A DNA stretch of 36,443 nucleotides, from positions 1 to 36,443 of IMG/VR virus record IMGVR_UViG_3300030372_000414. The stretch is one strand, 5' to 3'. This document shows positions 797 through 34,720 of the stretch, one piece after another; position 1 is the stretch's first letter, and every line of letters starts with the position of its first letter. Under the pieces are notes generated by a model. That model searched no databases and had not been told where the DNA came from. It was given only the letters and a program-made list of their open reading frames with translations. The DNA is from a virus. Taxonomy: Duplodnaviria > Caudoviricetes. The translations under genes were made by a program, and so were the position numbers.

Positions 797-1144
797 ATGC
801 TACAGTCTTTGATAGGGCCAATAACCAATCTAGTCGGTTCTTATTTTCAAAATAAAGCTAACGAGAAAAAGGCTGTACATGAGTCGAAGATGAGGCGTAT
901 AGAGACTGACGCTGATTGGGAAACCATGCAAGCTCAGGGATCTCAGTCCTCATGGAAAGATGAGTGGTTTGCTGTTATACTCAGCTTGCCACTCATTTGT
1001 GCTTTTATACCTAGCATGGTTCCTTACGTGCAGGAAGGTTTTAACGTGCTGGCTACCATGCCTGACTACTACAAAGTATTCCTAGGTGGTGCAATATCAG
1101 CTAGCTTTGGCATCAAGACTTTATCTACATGGGGTAAAAAGTAG
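797..1144 (+). CDS. Putative holin (3TM holin-like membrane protein)
   Basis: SSWKDEW motif followed by two hydrophobic segments and a basic C-terminus; SD GAGGAG. Confidence 0.6.
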   Translation: MLQSLIGPITNLVGSYFQNKANEKKAVHESKMRRIETDADWETMQAQGSQSSWKDEWFAVILSLPLICAFIPSMVPYVQEGFNVLATMPDYYKVFLGGAISASFGIKTLSTWGKK

Positions 1145-3876
1145 TGGCTAACGGCTTCTCATCTTTCGCTTACAGTGACCCTTTTGCAGACGAGGCTTCC
1201 CTAAGTCTTTTAGGAGGGAGGATACTTGACGATTCTGAAGATGACACTGAGCAGGAAGAGGGTGGCCCACCTAAGCTAACTACAGCACAACTAGCTAGAC
1301 TACGAGAGCTAGTAAAGAATATGCCTCGCTTCTATGGGGCAGACGAGTCAGGAATGACTGCCACAGGATCTACTGATCCTAGTGGTATGGAAGGTGCTGA
1401 TGTAGAAGCTGCCTACACTAATTACTTTGAGGAACTAAAAGCATACAATGCTGTAATCAATCAGTTCCTAGAAGATGAAGGTATACCTAGGTTTTACAAA
1501 GATGACAAAGGTAGGACTCTTTTTTTAAATATAGGTGATCCGGGCCAGCCTAGTTCCTTTACGGATATGTACCATTCAGGTGAGTATGATCCTCAGCAAA
1601 CTGCTGGTAACTATATGCAGGAGGGAGCAGTAGGTGAGTACGGGACTATATTTGATAAAACTGGGTCAGGTATTGAAGTTACCGATATAGCGTTAGGAAT
1701 AATAGCTGCAGGTCTTCCCATACCTATTCCGGGTGCAGGAGAACTTGCAGGTGGAAGTTTAATATATCAAACAGGAACCGATGAAGACCCTGCTGACGAT
1801 TACTTATCTGGTGAAGGAATAAACCCTTATCTTGCTTATTTAACAGGTAAAGGTTTATCTCAACAAGAAGAAGAAGAAGAGGAAGACACAACGACAGTAG
1901 ACGCTACTCAAGGTTTCTTAAATACTCTTAATACTGCTGAAGAAGCTTTACAAAACGCAGACGATGAAGTAACTACAGCTACTGAAGCTCTTAAAGAAAG
2001 TGATAAAAGCTATGATGAGACTATAGCTTCTTTTGAAGAGCTGATACAAAAAGAAAAAAATAGAAGAGGCGTTTTTTACAAAAACTCTGCTTACTACAAA
2101 TCTTTAAACAATAGGCTTGAAAAAGCTAAATTAGACAAACAAAACGAAGCTACTAAGCTACGACAAACTATAGCTGCTGCACAAACAGAACGTGATAATG
2201 CTAGAAAAGCAGCAAGAATAGCTCAGAAAGATTATGATGATTCTGTAAAGCTAAAGCAAGCAGCGGATCAAAGAAAAGCACAACAAGACGCTAGAGATAA
2301 AACTGTAGCTGAACAAGCTGCTCAATCATACATAGAGGAGTTAAGACAGGCTCAGATAACTGCAACTAACAATACTATTGAATCAAATTTACCCGGCTAT
2401 AACAGCCCTACAGAAGAAATAGTAGATAAACTTGGAGAAAGTCTTTATCAGCCGGGAATGTCTTTAGACCAGTTTATTGAAGCAGCTTATAATATTGCTT
2501 TTGCAGGGCTAAGGCCAGATCAAGTATCTGTTAAACAAAAGCTGAGACTTCAAGACATAGCTTCAAGTGCTTATGAAAGAGTTCCGAAAACAACAATAGT
2601 AAAACTAGGAGAAACTCAGGAAGATACTGTATCTGGAGTAGTAGCTGATGCTGATTCCAGTATTACAGAAGTAGAACCAACACCAGAAACTATATTAGAA
2701 AATACGACAGAACCTACTGAAACTACTGTTGAATTTGAAGATTTTGAGCCTGATGAGTTTGAATTAGATATTGAAGATCCTTTTATTACCGAACCTACTG
2801 AAAGTTTATTAGAGTCTACTGCTTCTAGTGATCCCTCAACTGAAGTTACGGAAGTTACAATAGACGAAGATCCTTTATTAGCTTCTACAGAAGAATTAGA
2901 AGTAAATCCTGTTGTAGTTTTCGGAGAAGTAGAGGAACCTGAACCAGTAGTTGTTGAACCGACTGCTTCTTCTATACCTACAGTTTTAGAAATTTTGTCT
3001 GGTACTTCAGGCTCAGTAGGAGGATTAGGAGGTTCTACCGGCGGTGCAGGAATGTTAGGAGGCAGTCCAGAAGAAGGGACTGTTGGCACTACTACAGAAG
3101 ATATTGTTTCTGGATTAGAAGATTCTTCAGTAGATTCTGTAGGAACAACCACGACAACTGGAGATACAGGTGTTGGGTCAGGAACAGAAACAATAGGAAC
3201 AGACGTAACTGAGGGTACAGGGACTACTACAGGAACAGGTGTTTCTGAAGTAGGTACTACTACAGGTACAGGAACAGGAGCAGGAGTAGGAGCAGGTGCA
3301 GGTGCTGGCACAGGAGTAGGAACTACGGCTGGTGTAGAAACAGGAGCCGGTGTTGGGACTGGAACAGGCGTTGCTACAGGCACAGGAGAAACTTCAGTTC
3401 CTATGGCTGAAACAGGTACAGGAACTACTGTTGAAACGACAGAAGAAACTGACTTTAGCGATATTGGAGAAGAAGCTGAAGAAAGTATTTTTGAGGATAC
3501 TACTGGAGAAACGGTAGAGGAAGTACTAGAAGAAGCTGAAGAAGTTTTAGAAAGAACAGAAGAAGAAGAAACAACTGAAGCAGAAGAAACTCAAGCTACA
3601 GGTGAGGAAGCAGCAGCTTCTGGTGAAGGTGAAGCAACAGGTGAAGGCACTGGAACAGGGCAAGGTTCTGGAGCAGGAGAAGGCGCAGGAGCAGGTTTAG
3701 GTGCTGGGTTGGGGTTAGGCCTAGGTATAGGCTTACTAAGGCCCGGAGGAGTCACACAGTCGCTATTTGAGAACTTTGAGTTTACACCTACATACCAAGC
3801 TCCAGAGTTACTAGACCCACTACCACAAGTAGAGACTCCTAACTTTTTACAAGGATTATTTAGGGACGTAGCATGA
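1144..3876 (+). CDS. Large acidic low-complexity protein (910 aa), probably virion-associated; function unknown
   Basis: Long ORF coupled to both neighbours; coiled-coil block, E/T-rich and G/T-rich tracts; between capsid and tail genes. Confidence 0.75.
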   Translation: MANGFSSFAYSDPFADEASLSLLGGRILDDSEDDTEQEEGGPPKLTTAQLARLRELVKNMPRFYGADESGMTATGSTDPSGMEGADVEAAYTNYFEELKAYNAVINQFLEDEGIPRFYKDDKGRTLFLNIGDPGQPSSFTDMYHSGEYDPQQTAGNYMQEGAVGEYGTIFDKTGSGIEVTDIALGIIAAGLPIPIPGAGELAGGSLIYQTGTDEDPADDYLSGEGINPYLAYLTGKGLSQQEEEEEEDTTTVDATQGFLNTLNTAEEALQNADDEVTTATEALKESDKSYDETIASFEELIQKEKNRRGVFYKNSAYYKSLNNRLEKAKLDKQNEATKLRQTIAAAQTERDNARKAARIAQKDYDDSVKLKQAADQRKAQQDARDKTVAEQAAQSYIEELRQAQITATNNTIESNLPGYNSPTEEIVDKLGESLYQPGMSLDQFIEAAYNIAFAGLRPDQVSVKQKLRLQDIASSAYERVPKTTIVKLGETQEDTVSGVVADADSSITEVEPTPETILENTTEPTETTVEFEDFEPDEFELDIEDPFITEPTESLLESTASSDPSTEVTEVTIDEDPLLASTEELEVNPVVVFGEVEEPEPVVVEPTASSIPTVLEILSGTSGSVGGLGGSTGGAGMLGGSPEEGTVGTTTEDIVSGLEDSSVDSVGTTTTTGDTGVGSGTETIGTDVTEGTGTTTGTGVSEVGTTTGTGTGAGVGAGAGAGTGVGTTAGVETGAGVGTGTGVATGTGETSVPMAETGTGTTVETTEETDFSDIGEEAEESIFEDTTGETVEEVLEEAEEVLERTEEEETTEAEETQATGEEAAASGEGEATGEGTGTGQGSGAGEGAGAGLGAGLGLGLGIGLLRPGGVTQSLFENFEFTPTYQAPELLDPLPQVETPNFLQGLFRDVA

Positions 3877-4526: not shown

Positions 4527-6049
4527 TGGCACAGCAACGACAAGTAATATACATAGGTGCTCCGGGTTTCAGAGGACTGAATACTCAAGACTCACCTGTT
4601 AATCAGGATCCGTCCTTTGCATCCATAGCGGAAAATGCTATAATAGATAAGTTTGGTAGGATTGGTGCTAGGAAAGGTATAAACAAAGTAACTAGCTCTT
4701 TGACAGCCTTAGGGTCTAGCATAGGCACTGAAAGCGTAAAAGAGTTTATAGCTTTAGATGGCGGTAAGAAAGTATACTCCGCTGGTAACAATAAGATATT
4801 TAGTGGTACTACCTCGCTAACTGATGAAACTCCGGGTGGTTACACAATATCTGCAAACAACTGGAAGATGGTCAACTTTAATGACCATATGTATTTTTTC
4901 CAGACAGGCCATGCTCCGTTAATATATCAGGACGGAGGCACGTTAGAGACTATAGCTAGTCACTCAGGAGCGTCAGGTACACCACCAAACGCTAATGAAG
5001 CTATAGCAGGGTTTGGTAGAATATGGGCTGCTGATGTGAGTGGAGACAGGAATACACTGTTCTTCTCTGACACACTAGACGGCACTGATTGGAACTCAGG
5101 CACGTCAGGTAGCCTAGACGTTAAAACTGTATGGCCTACAGGTTTTGACGAGATTGTAGCACTAGCTACACACAATAACTTTTTAGTTATATTTGGTAAG
5201 AAGTCGATACTTTTGTACTCAGGTGCAAGTGCTCCAGCATCGATGACCCTAGCAGACAGCGTAACAAATATAGGCTGTATAGCTAGAGACAGTGTACAGA
5301 ACACAGGAACAGACGTAATCTTTTTGTCTGACTCAGGAGTTAGAAGTTTAGGTAGAACAATACAGGAAAAGTCAGCACCGATAGGAGACATATCTAAAAA
5401 CGTCAGGGACGAGTTGATGTCTGACGTAAATACTGAAACACTTAACATAAAATCAGTGTTTAGTCCAGAGGAGGCTTTCTATCTTTTGTTCTTACCTACT
5501 ACGTCTAAAGTGTACTGCTTTGATATGCGAGGTACACTGGAGGACGGTAGCCATAGGGTAACTACATGGCCTAACACTAAGATACTGTGTGCAGACAGGA
5601 TAGATGACGGTACATTACATTTTGGTTCTGCAAAGGGCATAGGTAAGTACAGCGACTTTTTAGATGACGCAACGCCTTATGTTATGAAGTACTACACAAA
5701 TCCGTTATCCTACGGAGATGCTTCAAGACTAAAGATGTTGAAGGAAATAGATTTTACAGTAATCGGAGGCCAGAATACTTCTGTAGTTGTTAACTGGGGT
5801 TATGATTATAAGGAAGCGTACACAAAACAGACAGCAACATTGTCTGACGCTAAGATAGCGGAGTACGGCGTTTCAGAATATAACGTAGCAGACTCAGAAT
5901 ACAGTGCATCAATTATTATTGACAGTGCACAAATCAAAGCAACAGGGACAGGTAAAGTAGCTACCATAGGTATAGACGCAACAATAAATGGGAAGTCTTT
6001 ATCAATACAGGAGTTAAAGACGGAAGCTTTAATAGGTAAGTTAATATGA
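4526..6049 (+). CDS. Tail nozzle / tail tubular protein B-like (P22 gp10-like)
   Basis: FRGLNT N-terminus, GCIARDSV and FLSDSGVRSL beta-propeller-like motifs; follows adaptor. Confidence 0.7.
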   Translation: MAQQRQVIYIGAPGFRGLNTQDSPVNQDPSFASIAENAIIDKFGRIGARKGINKVTSSLTALGSSIGTESVKEFIALDGGKKVYSAGNNKIFSGTTSLTDETPGGYTISANNWKMVNFNDHMYFFQTGHAPLIYQDGGTLETIASHSGASGTPPNANEAIAGFGRIWAADVSGDRNTLFFSDTLDGTDWNSGTSGSLDVKTVWPTGFDEIVALATHNNFLVIFGKKSILLYSGASAPASMTLADSVTNIGCIARDSVQNTGTDVIFLSDSGVRSLGRTIQEKSAPIGDISKNVRDELMSDVNTETLNIKSVFSPEEAFYLLFLPTTSKVYCFDMRGTLEDGSHRVTTWPNTKILCADRIDDGTLHFGSAKGIGKYSDFLDDATPYVMKYYTNPLSYGDASRLKMLKEIDFTVIGGQNTSVVVNWGYDYKEAYTKQTATLSDAKIAEYGVSEYNVADSEYSASIIIDSAQIKATGTGKVATIGIDATINGKSLSIQELKTEALIGKLI

Positions 6050-9000
6050 CAAACTATTCTAAAACCACTAACTTTACAGCTAAAGATTCTTTAGTCTCTG
6101 GAGACTCTAATAAAATAGTTAGAGGAGCAGAAATTGACACAGAGTTTGATAACATATCTACGGCGGTTGCTACGAAGTCTGACATCGCCAGCCCGACATT
6201 CACAGGAGTTGTTTCATTTCCTGACGGTTCTGCTGGGAATCCCTCTATTACTAATACTGGTGATACTAACAGTGGTTTATTCTTTAGCGCAGCCGATACT
6301 TTGGCTTTTACTGCTGCTGGCACAGCACAGTTCACAATGGCTGATGGAGTCATCGCACCTGTTACAGATAATGATGTAGACCTAGGTACAAGCTCACTTG
6401 AGTTTAAAGATGCTTACTTTGATGGTACAGTACACACTGACGCTATCAACTTAGACGGTACAGATATCACAGCTACGGCAGCTGAACTTAACATCATGGA
6501 CGGTGTGACTGCTACTGCTTCTGAGTTAAACATCCTAGACGGCGTAACGTCAACTGCAGCAGAGCTAAACATTTTAGATGGAGTTACTGCGACTACGGCA
6601 GAACTCAATATCATGGACGGTGTAACGTCTACAACTGCTGAACTCAACATCCTAGACGGTAAAGCGTTTCTCGATGAAGACGATATGTCTTCCAACAGTG
6701 CCACAGGTATCGCTTCCCAGCAGTCAATTAAAGCTTACGTAGACGCACAGATAACTGCAGAAGACTTAGACGTTACTTCAGACAGCGGTACGATTGCTAT
6801 TGACCTAGATAGCGAAACACTAACCATCGCTGGTGGTGAAGGTATTGATACGTCCGCTACAAGCAACACAGTTACCATTGCTGCTGAAGAGGCAACTACG
6901 TCAAACAAAGGTGTAGCTTCTTTTGATTCTAATGACTTTACAGTATCTAGTGGTGCAGTTAGCCTAGCTACGACTTCCACAGCAGCAGAACTAAATATCC
7001 TAGATGGTGCTACTTTAAGCACAGCAGAACTTAACATACTCGATGGAGTAACGAGCACTACTGCAGAGCTAAATATCCTAGATGGAGTTACGTCTACTGC
7101 AGCAGAACTAAATATTCTTGATGGTGTGACAAGCACAGCTGCTGAACTAAACATTCTTGATGGCGTTACGGCTACAACAGCAGAACTTAACATCCTTGAC
7201 GGTGTTACTTCTACAGCAGCAGAGTTAAATATATTAGATGGTAAAGCTTTTCTTGACGAAGACGATATGTCTTCAAATAGTGCTACAGGTATTGCCTCTC
7301 AACAATCTATTAAGGCTTATGTAGACGCACAGATCACCGCTGAAGACCTAGACTTCCAAGCAGACTCTGGTGGTGCATTAAGCATAGACTTAGACTCAGA
7401 GACCCTTACGTTTACTGGTGGTACTGGTATAGACACCAGTGGTTCGGGTAATGCTGTGACCTTTGCTATCGATAGCACTGTAGCAACTCTTACCGGCTCA
7501 CAAACGCTAACCAATAAATCACTAACTGCACCTACGCTTACAGGTACGGCTGTAGTGGCTTCTTTAGACATCTCAGGCGACATAGACGTAGACGGCACAA
7601 CCAACCTCGATGGATTAACGGTAGACGGTAATGCTCGTATTGAAGAATTAGGGGCTATAGCCAAAATAACACTTGAGCGTGGCGGTTCAGCTAACGCCGC
7701 TGATAGCGCGGCGGTGGATTTGCTAGAGACTAACGCTGGATCTGAGGGCGCAAATTTTGGTGATGCGGCTACAAACGGTTTTAGGCTAAAACTTGATGGA
7801 AGCGCAAACGACTTTTTAATTCAGTCGGGTGCTGCTGGAACAGTAGCTACTAGATTTGGAATTGATAGAGACTCTGGTGAAGTTACTATCAATGATCCCG
7901 GTAATTCTACTGCTGATTTTAGAGTGGAGTCAGACGGCAACGCTAATATGCTGTTTGTGGATGCTGGTAATGATCATGTAAACATCGGTACGTCCACAGA
8001 TTTAGGTGGCGTGTTAAATGTTTTTGGCACTGGCGCGGGTAACGCAAGGGTTGTCATTGAAGGTGAAAGCAGCGCGGACCCTTATATAAACTTCCTCGCT
8101 AATAACACCACTCACTTTTCTATAGGTATCGATGACAGCGACAGCGACTCATTTAAAATAAGTCAAAACTCTGCTCTTGGCACTAATGATTTTTTTACGC
8201 TCACTACTGACGGTGGTGTAATCCTTGATAGGTCTGATAACGGAGATAATCTTACCCTAAGAACTTCAGACACAGATGCGTCTACTGGCCCTATTCTTAA
8301 TCTAAATAGAAACTCAGCTAGTCCAGCAGATAACGATTATATTGGTGAGATCAAATTTGATGGGCGTAATGATGCCGGTCAAGCGGTAACTTATGCGGGT
8401 TTTGCTGGGCGGATACTAGACGCTTCAGATGGAACAGAAGATGGCCGTTTTGAGTTGTACACGAAGTTGGCTGGTGCTCAAATCTCAAGGTTTTTAGCCA
8501 GTGATGAAACCGTCATCAACGAAGACTCCGTAGATTTAAATTTTAGGGCAGAAAGCAACAACGAAGCATTTATGTTGTTTGTTGATGCGGGGAATGACCG
8601 GATTGGGATGGGGATTTCCACACCAGACTGCCGTTTACATGTGAGGGACGGAGACGCAGGAGGAGTAACCGCTGCAACAAATTCTGTTTTGTGTCTCGAA
8701 TCAAACGGTGATGCTCTTCTTCAGTTTTTAACTCCAAATGCTAACGGCCAACAAATACGTTTCGGTGATCCTCAAGACACTGGCGCAGGATTTATAAATT
8801 ACGATCATAATACAAGCGTCATGTCCTTCGGGGTTAACGGCCCCTCAAGAATGTCCATAAATAGCTCTGGCAGCGTATCAATGCCAAATCTTAGTTCGGG
8901 TGCTGGAAACGCTGATCTTAGATATAACACTGGAAACGGCGATATAACTTACGATACATCAAGCAGACTTGTAAAAGAAAACATAGAAGATATTCCTTAT

Positions 9001-9288
9001 GGGTTAGAAGCTGTTAAAAATCTTTCACCAAAAAAATATAAAAGAACAGACGGCGACAAAAATGTAGAGGTTGGTTTTATTGCTGATGAAGTTGTGGAAG
9101 TAGTTCCAGAGCTTGTTGGGATGATGGCTAAATCAGTATTTACCGAAGAAGAATCAGATACAGAGGAGATAGCAGGATCTGTTAATTATAGCAAACTTAC
9201 AGCGGTGTTAGTAAAAGCAATCCAAGAGCAGCAAGAGTTGATAGAAACATTGCAAACAAAAGTAGCTGCATTAGAAGGAGGTAGTTAA
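6046..9288 (+). CDS. Tail fibre with C-terminal intramolecular chaperone (peptidase S74-like)
   Basis: 13-aa repeats; C-terminal SSRLVKENI...GFIADEV...PELV...VNYSKL...LVKAIQE and coiled coil. Confidence 0.85.
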   Translation: MTNYSKTTNFTAKDSLVSGDSNKIVRGAEIDTEFDNISTAVATKSDIASPTFTGVVSFPDGSAGNPSITNTGDTNSGLFFSAADTLAFTAAGTAQFTMADGVIAPVTDNDVDLGTSSLEFKDAYFDGTVHTDAINLDGTDITATAAELNIMDGVTATASELNILDGVTSTAAELNILDGVTATTAELNIMDGVTSTTAELNILDGKAFLDEDDMSSNSATGIASQQSIKAYVDAQITAEDLDVTSDSGTIAIDLDSETLTIAGGEGIDTSATSNTVTIAAEEATTSNKGVASFDSNDFTVSSGAVSLATTSTAAELNILDGATLSTAELNILDGVTSTTAELNILDGVTSTAAELNILDGVTSTAAELNILDGVTATTAELNILDGVTSTAAELNILDGKAFLDEDDMSSNSATGIASQQSIKAYVDAQITAEDLDFQADSGGALSIDLDSETLTFTGGTGIDTSGSGNAVTFAIDSTVATLTGSQTLTNKSLTAPTLTGTAVVASLDISGDIDVDGTTNLDGLTVDGNARIEELGAIAKITLERGGSANAADSAAVDLLETNAGSEGANFGDAATNGFRLKLDGSANDFLIQSGAAGTVATRFGIDRDSGEVTINDPGNSTADFRVESDGNANMLFVDAGNDHVNIGTSTDLGGVLNVFGTGAGNARVVIEGESSADPYINFLANNTTHFSIGIDDSDSDSFKISQNSALGTNDFFTLTTDGGVILDRSDNGDNLTLRTSDTDASTGPILNLNRNSASPADNDYIGEIKFDGRNDAGQAVTYAGFAGRILDASDGTEDGRFELYTKLAGAQISRFLASDETVINEDSVDLNFRAESNNEAFMLFVDAGNDRIGMGISTPDCRLHVRDGDAGGVTAATNSVLCLESNGDALLQFLTPNANGQQIRFGDPQDTGAGFINYDHNTSVMSFGVNGPSRMSINSSGSVSMPNLSSGAGNADLRYNTGNGDITYDTSSRLVKENIEDIPYGLEAVKNLSPKKYKRTDGDKNVEVGFIADEVVEVVPELVGMMAKSVFTEEESDTEEIAGSVNYSKLTAVLVKAIQEQQELIETLQTKVAALEGGS
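6466..6660 (+). repeat. Five 39-bp/13-aa repeats (VTSTAAELNILDG-type)
   Basis: Read from translation. Confidence 0.9.
6970..7242 (+). repeat. Seven 39-bp/13-aa repeats (VTSTAAELNILDG-type)
   Basis: Read from translation. Confidence 0.9.
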
Positions 9289-27211: not shown

Positions 27212-27850
27212 CTATGCTGCTAGATTGATTACTTTGATCATTTCTCGACCATGCGCCGGGTATGCTATCACAGTTACATCTTTATCCCAACACTTTCTAC
27301 ATGGTCCGCATTTACCGTCACGACTGTACGCTTCGCATACTGTCATCTCTGCAGTAGCTTTTTCTGGCGTAGGGATAATCGTAGACGTGTTAGCTCCCGG
27401 AATAGTCTCCCCAATGACGCTATCGGACGATAGTCTGACAACAACATTAGGCAAATTATTCATCTCCTGAATCACTGGTGCAAACTTAGCAAACTTGTGC
27501 ATCCTAGTAGGTAGCCAGTGGCGAACCCATGGCGTGCGTTTCATTACTTCCAGCATTTTACGTGCTAGCTTTATGTGGTACATATCACCAGAGTCGAACC
27601 AACGGAAGTATCTATCGTTGTCCAGCTCTGCGACCATATCATCTACCCAGCTGTCACGCTGCCAGTCTTCTTTATTGTGTTCTCTGGGCTTCTTTACGTT
27701 AGGGAACCTATAGTTACCCGTAGTGGCATAACAGCCCTTACAGGCATCCACAAGCTCCCCATCGGAACCTATGGACGCTGGACACGTATCGATTGCCTGT
27801 AGTGACCATGATCGGCATGGCATCTTTCCAGCTTTAGATAGTTTAATCAT
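27212..27850 (-). CDS. GP88-like Cys-rich (putative Fe-S) protein
   Basis: KLSKAGKMP..WSL, CP-x12-CKGCYA, FRWFDSGD, HWLPTR, PNVVVRLS, C-x8-CGPCRKCW. Confidence 0.8.
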   Translation of the reverse strand: MIKLSKAGKMPCRSWSLQAIDTCPASIGSDGELVDACKGCYATTGNYRFPNVKKPREHNKEDWQRDSWVDDMVAELDNDRYFRWFDSGDMYHIKLARKMLEVMKRTPWVRHWLPTRMHKFAKFAPVIQEMNNLPNVVVRLSSDSVIGETIPGANTSTIIPTPEKATAEMTVCEAYSRDGKCGPCRKCWDKDVTVIAYPAHGREMIKVINLAA

Positions 27851-28239: not shown

Positions 28240-28431
28240 TCAGTTTGTTTCCACTAGTCGGTTATAGATTGCTCTGGCGTTGTCTGTCATCTCACTACCT
28301 TCCCTATGGTTAGGGCGATAATAACTTTTAATCTTACTTAATCGCAAGTATTCATTTGAGGATATGCCTGTGTGGTAATCCTTAAAATAATGATAATATG
28401 CGTTTACAATATCGAATCTGTCAAAGTACAT
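28240..28431 (-). CDS. Hypothetical early protein (first gene of minus arm)
   Basis: MYFDRFDI...YH.G...Y.RLS motif; SD AGGAGG. Confidence 0.7.
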   Translation of the reverse strand: MYFDRFDIVNAYYHYFKDYHTGISSNEYLRLSKIKSYYRPNHREGSEMTDNARAIYNRLVETN

Positions 28432-28542: not shown

Positions 28543-28771
28543 TTGACATTTAGCTGTATATACTGTAGGGGAGCTTAAGGGCTGCCACAGGCTCACACAC
28601 TTGTCAACTCTTGACACACAAGTTTTCATATGGTAGGCCAGCGGAGCCCTTAGCATACTTTGGTGTCCGTGTCAAGTTGACAACTCCAGTAAACTATGGT
28701 AGGCCTGAGGATCCTCTAGCATAATTTAGTTGCAATGTCAAGTTGACAAATGGACCGGGGTATGCTAGAGG
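28543..28771. repeat. Periodic array of seven alternating TTGACA-N12-TRTGS-TA promoter-like motifs
   Basis: Plus-strand TTGACA at 28543, 28611, 28677, 28743; minus-strand TTGACA starting 28607, 28675, 28741; period 66-68 bp. Confidence 0.9.
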
Positions 28772-28883
28772 GTACCGGGGGAGGGCTAGCGGTGGCGTAA
28801 AGTTTGTGGTTACTGTACACATACAAAATAGGGTAAAATTAGGAATAAATGCAGCCTCTAGTATTCCTTAGATTCCTCAAGTA

Positions 28884-28896
28884 AATCAAAGCCTTA
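28884..28896 (+). promoter_or_regulatory. IHF consensus site
   Basis: AATCAA-AGCC-TTA matches WATCAANNNNTTR. Confidence 0.5.
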
Positions 28897-28936
28897 CAAA
28901 AAACACACAAAACTAGTAATTAACACTACAAAAGGG

Positions 28937-28965
28937 TTGACATTTGCTTAAAAATATGCTATACT
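28937..28965 (+). promoter_or_regulatory. Sigma70 promoter for packaging operon
   Basis: TTGACA-N17-TATACT with extended -10 TG. Confidence 0.85.
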
Positions 28966-29002
28966 AAAAAAGTATTCTTTAGGGGTTAAAGGTAAATACA
29001 AA

Positions 29003-29401
29003 ATGGAAATAAAACGGAAGAGAGGTAGACCTAGAAAATCTGACATAGCAGAAAAAACCACAGGTAACAGAAGATCCGTTGGCAGACCTAAGGGTGATGC
29101 TAGTATCATAAACGAATACAAAGCTAGAATGTTAGCTTCCCCTAAATCTAAAAAAGTATTAGATAGTATATTCAATGCAGCTTTAGATGATGACCATAAG
29201 AATCAAGCAGCAGCATGGAAGCTCGTAATGGATAGAATGCTTCCACTTAGTTATTTTGAAAAGGAAGCCACAGGTGGCCGTCAGTCTGTACAAATCACTA
29301 TATCAGGAGTTAATGGAGTTAATACCACCATCGGCCCACAGGATACTAACGACTCTACCATGCCAGCTATTGAAGGAGAATACAGCGAAAGTGACGTATA
29401 A
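29003..29401 (+). CDS. Putative terminase small subunit with AT-hook-like motifs
   Basis: KRKRGRPRK and VGRPKG; helical core; first gene of arm, upstream of TerL. Confidence 0.65.
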   Translation: MEIKRKRGRPRKSDIAEKTTGNRRSVGRPKGDASIINEYKARMLASPKSKKVLDSIFNAALDDDHKNQAAAWKLVMDRMLPLSYFEKEATGGRQSVQITISGVNGVNTTIGPQDTNDSTMPAIEGEYSESDV

Positions 29402-29738: not shown

Positions 29739-29830
29739 TGGAACCTGAAGAAAACAAAGAACCAGTAGAAAACGAAGAACACGAAGACTGTGGCACAGAA
29801 GGGTGCTGTGGTGAGTGTGTAGATGACTGA
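29738..29830 (+). CDS. 30-aa acidic Cys-rich peptide (not in track)
   Basis: MEPEENKEPVENEEHEDCGTEGCCGECVDD; TAATG coupling; fills gap to TerL. Confidence 0.6.
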   Translation: MEPEENKEPVENEEHEDCGTEGCCGECVDD

Positions 29831-31076
29831 TCTTAATATACAACTGTTGCCGTGGCAGCAGGACGTATGGAATGATAAGACTAGGTTTAAGATAGTTGCA
29901 GCTGGTAGACGTACAGGTAAATCAAGACTTGCAGCATGGATGTTGATTATCAACGCTTTAGAGTCGGAACGAGGACACGTCTTCTACGTTGCGCCCACAC
30001 AGGGACAAGCAAGAGACATTATGTGGCAGACACTTTTAGAGCTAGGCCACCCTGTGATAACGAGCAGCCACATAAACAACTTACAAATAAAACTAATCAA
30101 CGGAGCCACCATATCTCTAAAAGGGTCTGATAGACCTGAAACAATGAGGGGTGTGTCGTTGAAGTTTTTGGTGATGGACGAGTACGCAGACATGAAGCCT
30201 GAGGTATTCGAGCAGATTCTCAGGCCAGCCCTAGCTGACCAAAAGGGTACAGCGTTATTCATCGGTACACCTATGGGTAGAAACCACTTCTACGAGTTGT
30301 ACAAGTATGCGGAGCTAGATGATGATCCTACTTATAAATCATGGCACTTTACTAGCTATGACAATCCTCTGCTAGACCCTGAAGAGATAGACGTAGCTAA
30401 AAAGTCAATGTCCAGCTACGCTTTCCGACAGGAGTTCATGGCCTCCTTTGAAGCCAGAGGATCAGAAATGTTTAAGGAGGAGTGGGTGCAGTTCACTGAG
30501 TCTCCTGAAGAGGGTGACTACTACGTATCCATTGACTTAGCTGGCTTTGAGGAAGTAAACAAAAAGAAAACCAAAAACTCTAAACTTGACGAAACGGCAA
30601 TAGCGGTAGTCAAAGTATGCCAATCAGGACAGTGGCACGTAGAGAATATAATACATGGCAGGTGGGAGCTAGCTGAGACTGCCAGAAAGATCTTTGAGGT
30701 TGTGCGAGACTACAGGCCTATAGCTACCGGGATAGAGAAAGGTATCGCTAGACAGGCTGTAGTGTCTCCTTTGACTGACTTGATGAAACGCTATGGAATG
30801 TTCTTTAGGATAGACGAGCTAACCCATGGAAACAAAAAGAAAACAGACCGTGTGATGTGGGCATTGCAGGGTAGATTTGAGAATGGTTTCATAACTTTAA
30901 ACAAAGGTAACTGGAACAGTAGATTCCTAGATCAGTTATTTCAGTTCCCTGATCCACTGACCCACGATGACTTGGTGGATGCCCTAGCCTACACAGATCA
31001 GCTGGCTAAGGTGGCTTACAGCTATGACTTTGAAGTAGATGACCATGAAGTTTTGGACGCAGTAACAGGGTATTAA
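29823..31076 (+). CDS. terL: Terminase large subunit
   Basis: AAGRRTGKS Walker A, VAPT, MRG, VMDE Walker B, IGTP, SIDLA, HDDLVDALAY. Confidence 0.95.
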   Translation: MTDLNIQLLPWQQDVWNDKTRFKIVAAGRRTGKSRLAAWMLIINALESERGHVFYVAPTQGQARDIMWQTLLELGHPVITSSHINNLQIKLINGATISLKGSDRPETMRGVSLKFLVMDEYADMKPEVFEQILRPALADQKGTALFIGTPMGRNHFYELYKYAELDDDPTYKSWHFTSYDNPLLDPEEIDVAKKSMSSYAFRQEFMASFEARGSEMFKEEWVQFTESPEEGDYYVSIDLAGFEEVNKKKTKNSKLDETAIAVVKVCQSGQWHVENIIHGRWELAETARKIFEVVRDYRPIATGIEKGIARQAVVSPLTDLMKRYGMFFRIDELTHGNKKKTDRVMWALQGRFENGFITLNKGNWNSRFLDQLFQFPDPLTHDDLVDALAYTDQLAKVAYSYDFEVDDHEVLDAVTGY

Positions 31077-34370: not shown

Positions 34371-34399
34371 TTGACTTTTACTTAAAAGTATGCTATACT
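34371..34399 (+). promoter_or_regulatory. Sigma70 promoter for scaffold/capsid operon
   Basis: TTGACT-N17-TATACT with extended -10 TG; near-copy of the 28937 promoter. Confidence 0.85.
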
Positions 34400-34435: not shown

Positions 34436-34720
34436 ATGACTAAAGAACTAGAGGAATACTTTGCTAACTACAACGAATTGTTTAACTCTGTTGGTTGGAA
34501 ACAATTACTAGGGGATCTACAACAAAACGTAGCGCAAATAAACTCAGTCGAAGCGACAACAGACGTAGAGAATCTACACTTCCGTAAAGGACAACTGGCG
34601 ATTCTTGCAACTCTGTTTAACTTACCAGCTCAAATGGAAAATGCTGAAAAAGACGCACAGGAATCTGATGAGGAAGAAAAAGCTGAGGCAGAAGCAGCGA
34701 CCTCTTCCCAAGAAATCTGA
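34436..34720 (+). CDS. Hypothetical head-module protein
   Basis: LFNSVGWKQL...LHFRKGQL motif; between portal and scaffold. Confidence 0.7.
   Translation: MTKELEEYFANYNELFNSVGWKQLLGDLQQNVAQINSVEATTDVENLHFRKGQLAILATLFNLPAQMENAEKDAQESDEEEKAEAEAATSSQEI

Follow-up and report, generated by a model that had tools for sequence, protein, structure and literature searches.

Why a phage should keep a dense row of sites resembling host sigma70 promoters, each lacking the T at position -7 (T-7), is the question raised by the gap between the two genome arms considered here. The window, meaning the whole 36,443-nt stretch that was analysed, represents a single phage genome of 36,053 bp whose ends overlap by 390 nt through assembly, and its source is an uncultured T7-like marine podophage. 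The minus-strand arm carries early and replication genes (primase-helicase, family A polymerase, Cas4-like exonuclease, and RNR), and the plus-strand arm carries late genes (putative terS, lysin, terL, portal, capsid, and tail). No RNA polymerase gene was found among the 49 ORFs in the ORF family scan on which this absence rests, and a six-frame search of the genome found no sigma region 4.

29003..29401, plus strand: putative small terminase subunit (terS), probable from its position before lysin and terL and an AT-hook-like motif
29823..31076, plus strand: large terminase subunit (terL), with PHROG and Pfam Terminase_6N matches

Best identities to cultured phages were below 60% for terL, portal, capsid, polymerase, and RNR, so the phage has no close cultured relative; the nearest cultured matches of the polymerase (48%) and RNR (58%) are Pelagibacter phages. 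The putative TerS matched no cultured phage protein and no PHROG or Pfam family, and among its Atlas neighbours AT_hook occurs in 15% to 34% of members. A terS relative is encoded in 588 of 600 scanned stretches, and the family is estimated at ~1,600 stored stretches. Assigning a host from MAGs was rejected, the 4 terL matches there sitting in four unrelated taxa and being likely misbinned. Elsewhere in the window, 27212-27850 (minus strand) is a conserved early gene of the GP88/DUF7227 family found in ~790 stored stretches, 1144-3876 (plus strand) encodes a 910-aa Gly/Thr-repeat protein without a family match, and 6046-9288 (plus strand) encodes a tail fibre with duplicated 39-nt repeat blocks.

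Phased units between the genome arms

An earlier reading of the DNA from its letters alone (hereafter the sequence-only reading) had described seven crippled sigma70 promoter mimics in the gap, and all seven were recovered; they are listed here together with two promoter candidates nearby:

28395..28424, minus strand: candidate early promoter TTGACA-18-CATATT, outside the repeat
28543..28571, plus strand: F1 unit, sigma70-like, without TRTG (TACTG) and without T-7, just outside the inferred repeat
28579..28607, minus strand: R1 unit, C at -12, without T-7
28611..28639, plus strand: F2 unit, sigma70-like, without T-7
28647..28675, minus strand: R2 unit, sigma70-like, without T-7
28677..28705, plus strand: F3 unit, sigma70-like, without T-7
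28713..28741, minus strand: R3 unit, sigma70-like, without T-7
28743..28771, plus strand: F4 unit, adjoining the G tract and oriented towards the inferred right end
28937..28965, plus strand: late promoter candidate of unit-like architecture in which T-7 is present (TATACT)

Of the features looked for in an active promoter, TTGACA, a 17-bp spacer, and A-11 occur in all seven units and T-7 in none; six also have TRTG, the exception being F1. Within 240 bp the pattern TTGACA + 17 + A-11 matches 7 times, whereas 300 dinucleotide shuffles of the genome gave 2 matches at most, and the stricter TTGACA-N12-TRTG-N-YA matches 6 times in the array against a shuffle maximum of 1. A second late promoter candidate, at 34371, likewise combines the unit architecture with TATACT. 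The candidate early promoter is weakly supported, with a leftward TTGACW..TAnnnT in only 21 of 112 relatives, and a 62-aa ORF across F1-F2 has no family match.

The geometry is largely as first described. In each of the three facing pairs 7 bp separate the hexamers, and the period, given as 66-68 bp, measures 68, 66, and 66 bp. The 1-bp gap between back-to-back -35 boxes holds for R2/F3 and R3/F4 but not for R1/F2, where it is 3 bp, and the downstream DNA, described as GC-rich, is so only in part (5 to 8 G+C in the 10 bases after units). The spacers do differ, sharing 1 to 6 of 12 bases, a feature that had been taken to set the array apart from a recent tandem duplication, but the array does gain and lose whole periods. 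In one relative (L267) it has one extra period, and 70 bases at 28613-28684 are missing from contigs of runs X3 and X6.

A probable terminal repeat and its boundaries

The sequence-only reading had also proposed that the array lies near a physical end of the genome, and the contig ends of relatives make this likely. Boundary motifs shared with those relatives place the following features:

28584..28811, no strand: inferred direct terminal repeat of ~228 bp, by boundary-motif homology, ends +/- ~5 nt (right 28810-28816)
28579..28601, plus strand: left boundary element GGGCT^GCC ... CACAC, with the inferred cut at 28583/28584, between -12 and -11 of R1
28770..28786, plus strand: conserved G tract, ~31 nt inside the inferred right cut
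28810..28828, plus strand: right boundary, with the inferred cut (GT^ACCC in relatives) and a conserved TACAAAA 11 nt beyond

The family scaffold consists of the left motif GG(G/C)T^(A/G/C)C..CACAC, a variable array, the G tract, ~31 variable bases, GT^ACCC, TACAAAA, and a late promoter, and the left and right boundary motifs are inverted copies of each other. By a strict pattern the G tract is present in 123 of 149 distinct loci; the left motif occurs in 58 of 123 loci, across all array types, with implied repeats of 144-333 bp (median 233). A strict right-boundary pattern matched only 2 loci and was set aside.

One relative of 37,296 bp (G001, the same contig as L243) opens on the left motif and, at its other end, reaches 251 nt into a further copy of this repeat, its two end copies being identical over 222 nt and different over the last 29 of the 251, in this one contig. 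The ends of G002 show no repeat pair. Contig ends fall up to 900 nt beyond the G tract in 19 cases. In 4 of these (L215, L239, L243, and L548) the contig stops 29-31 nt past it, twice exactly at GT^ACCC, a clustering with P 0.0003 in a uniform simulation, and the remaining 15 ends are scattered. The clustered ends come from sigma70-type and DnaA-type phages alike. On the left side, G001 starts at the homologous base, L060 1 nt before it, and L377 3 nt before it. The family thus appears to have fixed cut sites, with 4 of 19 right ends within 3 nt and three left starts within 3 nt. In the 37 early-side contigs examined, two more ends lie beyond a G tract, by 25 nt in L304 and by 22 nt in L336. 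Such contig ends could be an assembly artefact of G runs that vary in length, but this would not account for the 222-nt match and motif start of G001. Contig depth over 28584-29140 in run X3 is 283 against 178 and 164 in the flanks, but this segment starts one word length before a branch, and depth is here unreliable as copy number; runs X1 and X2 have flat depth across the region.

It is therefore most likely that the array fills a direct terminal repeat, and hence both physical ends, the ends being placed by homology to relatives. With the boundaries so placed, F1 falls outside the repeat and R1 is cut between -12 and -11. Comparable repeats are described for the Zobellviridae (cobaviruses), which likewise have two arms, an ORF-free gap with a repeat of 120-170 bp, and a G+C-rich early-side end (PMC6775973). 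Gene traits of that family found here are the two arms, a T7-like polymerase, a primase-helicase, and the lack of a detected RNA polymerase; its members are absent among the best listed matches for terL, portal, capsid, and polymerase, and its repeats hold no sigma70, sigma-54, or DnaA arrays by the patterns used.

One slot, exchangeable cargo

The search for arrays upstream of terS in related contigs that the sequence-only reading had called for returned units conserved with variable spacers. Of 350 loci, 202 had terS and 149 were distinct with 450 nt upstream; 26 without the strict G tract and 1 short locus were removed, leaving 122. In the 85 loci found by protein homology alone, T-7 was present in 0 of 42 slot units and in 43 of 43 late promoters, and in a wider set it was present in 0 of 92 distinct slot units with Y-12 and A-11 and in 59 of 59 late promoters. 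At neighbouring positions of slot units T was found in 3 to 12 of 42, the loci being related, and since T is scarce there too, the loss of T-7 is partly a matter of general G+C richness. These counts support the earlier suggestion that the binding contacts are kept (-35, TRTG, and A-11) while T-7 is purged, i.e., that slot units appear selected not to fire. T-7 is reported to act after the first 5-nt bubble and to stabilise the open complex (PMC7703639). Because it acts after this first partial opening, sigma70 complexes on the units would be expected to be closed or barely open and rarely to initiate.

The same split was encountered, in a motif scan, in two Bacillus Wphviruses that are close kin. 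In Belinda, T-7 is present in 0 of 6 units inside the 2,974-bp repeat and in 10 of 12 outside (Fisher P 0.0015), and in SBP8a (L487), whose repeat is annotated in its record, in 0 of 6 inside and 9 of 11 outside (Fisher P 0.0023). Each long terminal repeat thus holds six T-7-less sigmaA-type units (in Belinda, L572:529-2949). A Wphvirus facing pair lies ~25 nt from the recorded right end, and this end region matches 54 records.

In most relatives the slot is filled by something else. The 85 protein-found loci comprise sigma-54 arrays (22), sigma-54 with DnaA (11), DnaA alone (8), sigma70-type arrays (15) or single sigma70-type units (4), and a CTAAC-N-GTTRG-like repeat (16), and in 9 of the 85 slots no one of the four motifs occurs more than once. 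Over 21,200 nt these slots contain 155 sigma-54, 68 DnaA, 52 sigma70-type, and 83 CTAAC-type sites, while 18,121 nt of control sequence further upstream contain no site of any of the four kinds. Single slots reach 9 sigma-54 sites (L312) and 10 DnaA boxes (L068). The sigma-54 sites were counted with a consensus pattern, and the consensus for DnaA was taken from 10.1101/866236. Patterns for matS, CRP, FNR, and NtrC had 0 matches in slots.

On a FastTree tree of terS + lysin, which 94 of the 122 loci entered, array type undergoes 29 changes, with 5 as the minimum and 53.6 after shuffling, and identical terS/lysin proteins carry different array types; the array thus does not follow terS. Since the slot is refilled with sigma-54 or DnaA sites, the retained property would be occupancy by an abundant host protein, whatever its identity. 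Sigma-54 holoenzyme sits on DNA in a transcriptionally inactive form (PMC4591121), and loss of T-7 would give sigma70 the inactive bound state of sigma-54. Silent sigma-54 sites, where holoenzyme is bound without transcription, are in this respect similar; those described are scattered over a bacterial chromosome (PMC4591121), whereas here the sites are of sigma70 type, have lost T-7, and stand in tandem at phage ends.

A proposed docking of host proteins at the DNA ends

The reading we prefer, with a probability of roughly 0.4, is that the array docks host sigma70 RNA polymerase without efficient firing and would coat both DNA ends from injection onward. Cutting by the terminase at both boundary motifs would put the array at both physical ends, where sigma70 holoenzyme would dock on the units and rarely initiate. 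Docked proteins would slow end-loading nucleases and end sensors (RecBCD/AddAB, SbcCD, Shedu, and Lamassu) and possibly also hold the entering DNA as a ratchet. In favour of this, free DNA ends are described as targets of repair and defence enzymes (PMC13685816). A job at DNA entry is suggested by what the cargoes share, an abundant host binder that is present before phage expression and stays put; host rather than phage proteins would be used since the job precedes phage gene expression. Slightly less probable is that this large marine family builds borrowed telomeres, a swappable docking cassette (T-7-less sigma70, sigma-54 holoenzyme, DnaA, ParB, and others) that caps the ends against end-sensing nucleases and immunity, with the Wphviruses having independently reached the same sigma-factor trick.

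Several points count against capping. The 9 of 85 slots without a repeated motif are one of them. Closed complexes do not last long, RecBCD is able to displace proteins from DNA, and with units 1-3 bp apart back to back, simultaneous occupancy of all may fail. No such array is present in the repeats of six cultured short-repeat podophages (ICBM1, ICBM2, RIO-1, VpV262, LUZ24, and phiEco32, the repeat length of the last being presumed), so it is not required for this life style. Bacterial Mre11-Rad50, described as processing protein-blocked ends (PMC13685816), also weighs against capping.

The main rival, which we consider less likely, moves the job to packaging or repeat duplication. Parked host proteins would slow the motor or the repeat-copying polymerase, so that the terminase can locate the G tract and make its cut 31 nt further on; they would stand in for the paused phage polymerase of T7, which at the junction is described as engaging the terminase (PMC3276506). 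The array does lie exactly between the two inferred cuts, a unit in the F4 position adjoins the G tract in 47 of 122 slots of relatives, the distance from G tract to cut is fixed over variable sequence, and the 49 ORFs include no phage RNA polymerase. However, late in infection a phage protein could do the job, a conserved terminase cannot make one specific contact with three unrelated host proteins, and VpV262 and RIO-1 have similar sites just inside the left repeat, not within it. Improbable in our view is a replication origin or helper, in which the T7-like primase-helicase and polymerase would work at a junction organised or opened by host proteins. DnaA boxes do form arrays in 19 of 85 loci and cumulative GC skew has its minimum at this region, but the skew tracks gene direction and the contig ends point to termini here. 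The window itself lacks a DnaA array, with 1 box genome-wide, and idle sigma70 or sigma-54 complexes neither prime nor unwind.

The remaining readings are more doubtful still. Gammaproteobacterial-type LexA-, parS-, and SlmA-like boxes (motifs as we presume them) in some relatives stand against an alphaproteobacterial host in which the units would be working, CarD-activated promoters, their alternate orientation providing an inward promoter at either end. That idea draws on the Pelagibacter phages as nearest cultured polymerase and RNR matches, on an internal late promoter where facing pairs share this geometry, and on the presence of T-7 in only 30-43% of alphaproteobacterial promoters (PMC7703639). 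The slot units, however, have it in 0 of 42 while the phage's own late promoters all keep it, the same split recurs in Bacillus phages, every second unit is directed off the DNA end, and sigma-54 and DnaA arrays replace them, which leaves little room for it. Slightly less room is left for a sponge titrating host RNA polymerase (or DnaA, or sigma-54) as genome copies accumulate, one of the roles the sequence-only reading had offered: six to seven sites per repeat with high-affinity contacts kept would suit it, yet the same holoenzyme is needed for the phage late promoters, close relatives replace the array by sites for other targets, and a location between the cuts is unnecessary. A second of those roles, an RNA polymerase-specific loading device, is likewise unlikely with cargo replaced in close relatives and the phage's own late promoters host-type. 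A third, sites for a phage protein that also reads the late promoters, fares no better, the genome having no detected sigma region 4 and array type being independent of terS/lysin. Least probable of all is that the promoter likeness is accidental and that the sites are bound by TerS or an early phage protein, or form a hairpin in single-stranded DNA. The array strand folds better than shuffles (DNA z -4.2) and the CTAAC-type repeat has no nameable host protein, but array type differs among near-identical terS/lysin sequences and three separate host consensus motifs would not come about accidentally. A structured RNA or ssDNA hairpin was rejected, as pairing is not kept across relatives; spacers of facing units resemble each other no better than shuffled partners do (4.3 vs 4.0 of 12, P 0.14, 23 pairs), many relatives have same-strand tandem arrays unable to fold back, and the array has no Rfam match.

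The T-7-less sigma70 array at a probable phage terminal repeat is a real, conserved element, and the closest known system is the DnaA array of T5, where DnaA boxes lie at the injection stop in the left terminal repeat (Davison, 10.1101/866236). Both, on that account, consist of phased host-protein sites in non-coding terminal-repeat DNA with a proposed role at DNA entry. The T5 case, as described there, has a ~10-kb repeat with genes, two-step injection, and DnaA alone, fixed across T5-likes, whereas here the array makes up the whole probable 230-bp repeat, sigma70 holoenzyme would be the ligand, and relatives exchange the cargo. The window's array has no T5-type paired inverted DnaA boxes, those of relatives being tandem and not in the T5 layout; T5 A1/A2 genes have no match among the 49 ORFs, and the repeat of ~230 bp is gene-free. 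T7, whose A1-A3 are entry promoters, uses active transcription, whereas here the units appear selected not to fire and no phage polymerase was found. The likeness to T7 and T3 lies in an RNA polymerase at the genome end, linked there to packaging or entry (PMC3276506). Bacterial bidirectional promoters also have facing -10 elements, with start sites that would cross, but their usual spacing is given as 18 bp with T-7/A-11 paired, against ~6 bp and no T-7 here (PMC10268837). A strict pattern found no sigma70-type array in SPO1, HMO-2011, HTVC103P, or phiEco32, and no sigma-54 array was found in 5 cultured genomes. The literature searched, including few subscription papers, yielded no paper on T-7-less sigma70 or sigma-54 site arrays in terminal repeats. 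Just inside their left repeats, VpV262 has one strict and several loose sigma-54-like sites (L486:190-350) and RIO-1 has one T-7-less unit.

The docking reading addresses how phages with bare linear ends and short repeats survive their first minutes among end-loading nucleases and what the interior of a repeat is for, and it offers a sequence rule, binding contacts kept and T-7 dropped. Sigma70, sigma-54, and DnaA in one slot amount to natural swap experiments, and a Wphvirus on Bacillus thuringiensis is a cultured test case. Cargo may help infer the hosts of an abundant uncultured family, and with the boundary motifs its genomes can be opened where the true ends likely lie.

Some slots have other contents. 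A CCTAAGT-CTAACNGTTRG repeat is present in 3-6 copies in L004, L048, L063, and 13 more; TCTCAGG recurs at ~11-bp steps in L013/L014; and L047 and L303 have alternating purine-pyrimidine runs in place of recognisable sites. What we take to be parS-like and gamma-type LexA-like boxes lie in or beside the slot (L074 and L352 in the slot; L297 and L352). Presumed SlmA-box-like 12-mers, e.g., GTAAGTACTTAC, stand between the G tract and terS, before the late promoter, in 25 of 122 loci (e.g., L030 and L004) and are absent from the window. Most matches of a facing-pair scan were rejected as terminal arrays and correspond to the internal late promoter upstream of the 34436-34720 homologue. The window's own promoter there, at 34371, has no facing partner by the strict pattern; in relatives (L084, L085, L113, and many of L081-L160) that promoter often has a facing antisense promoter-like unit in a 62-67 bp geometry, the sense unit keeping T-7 and the antisense unit varying.
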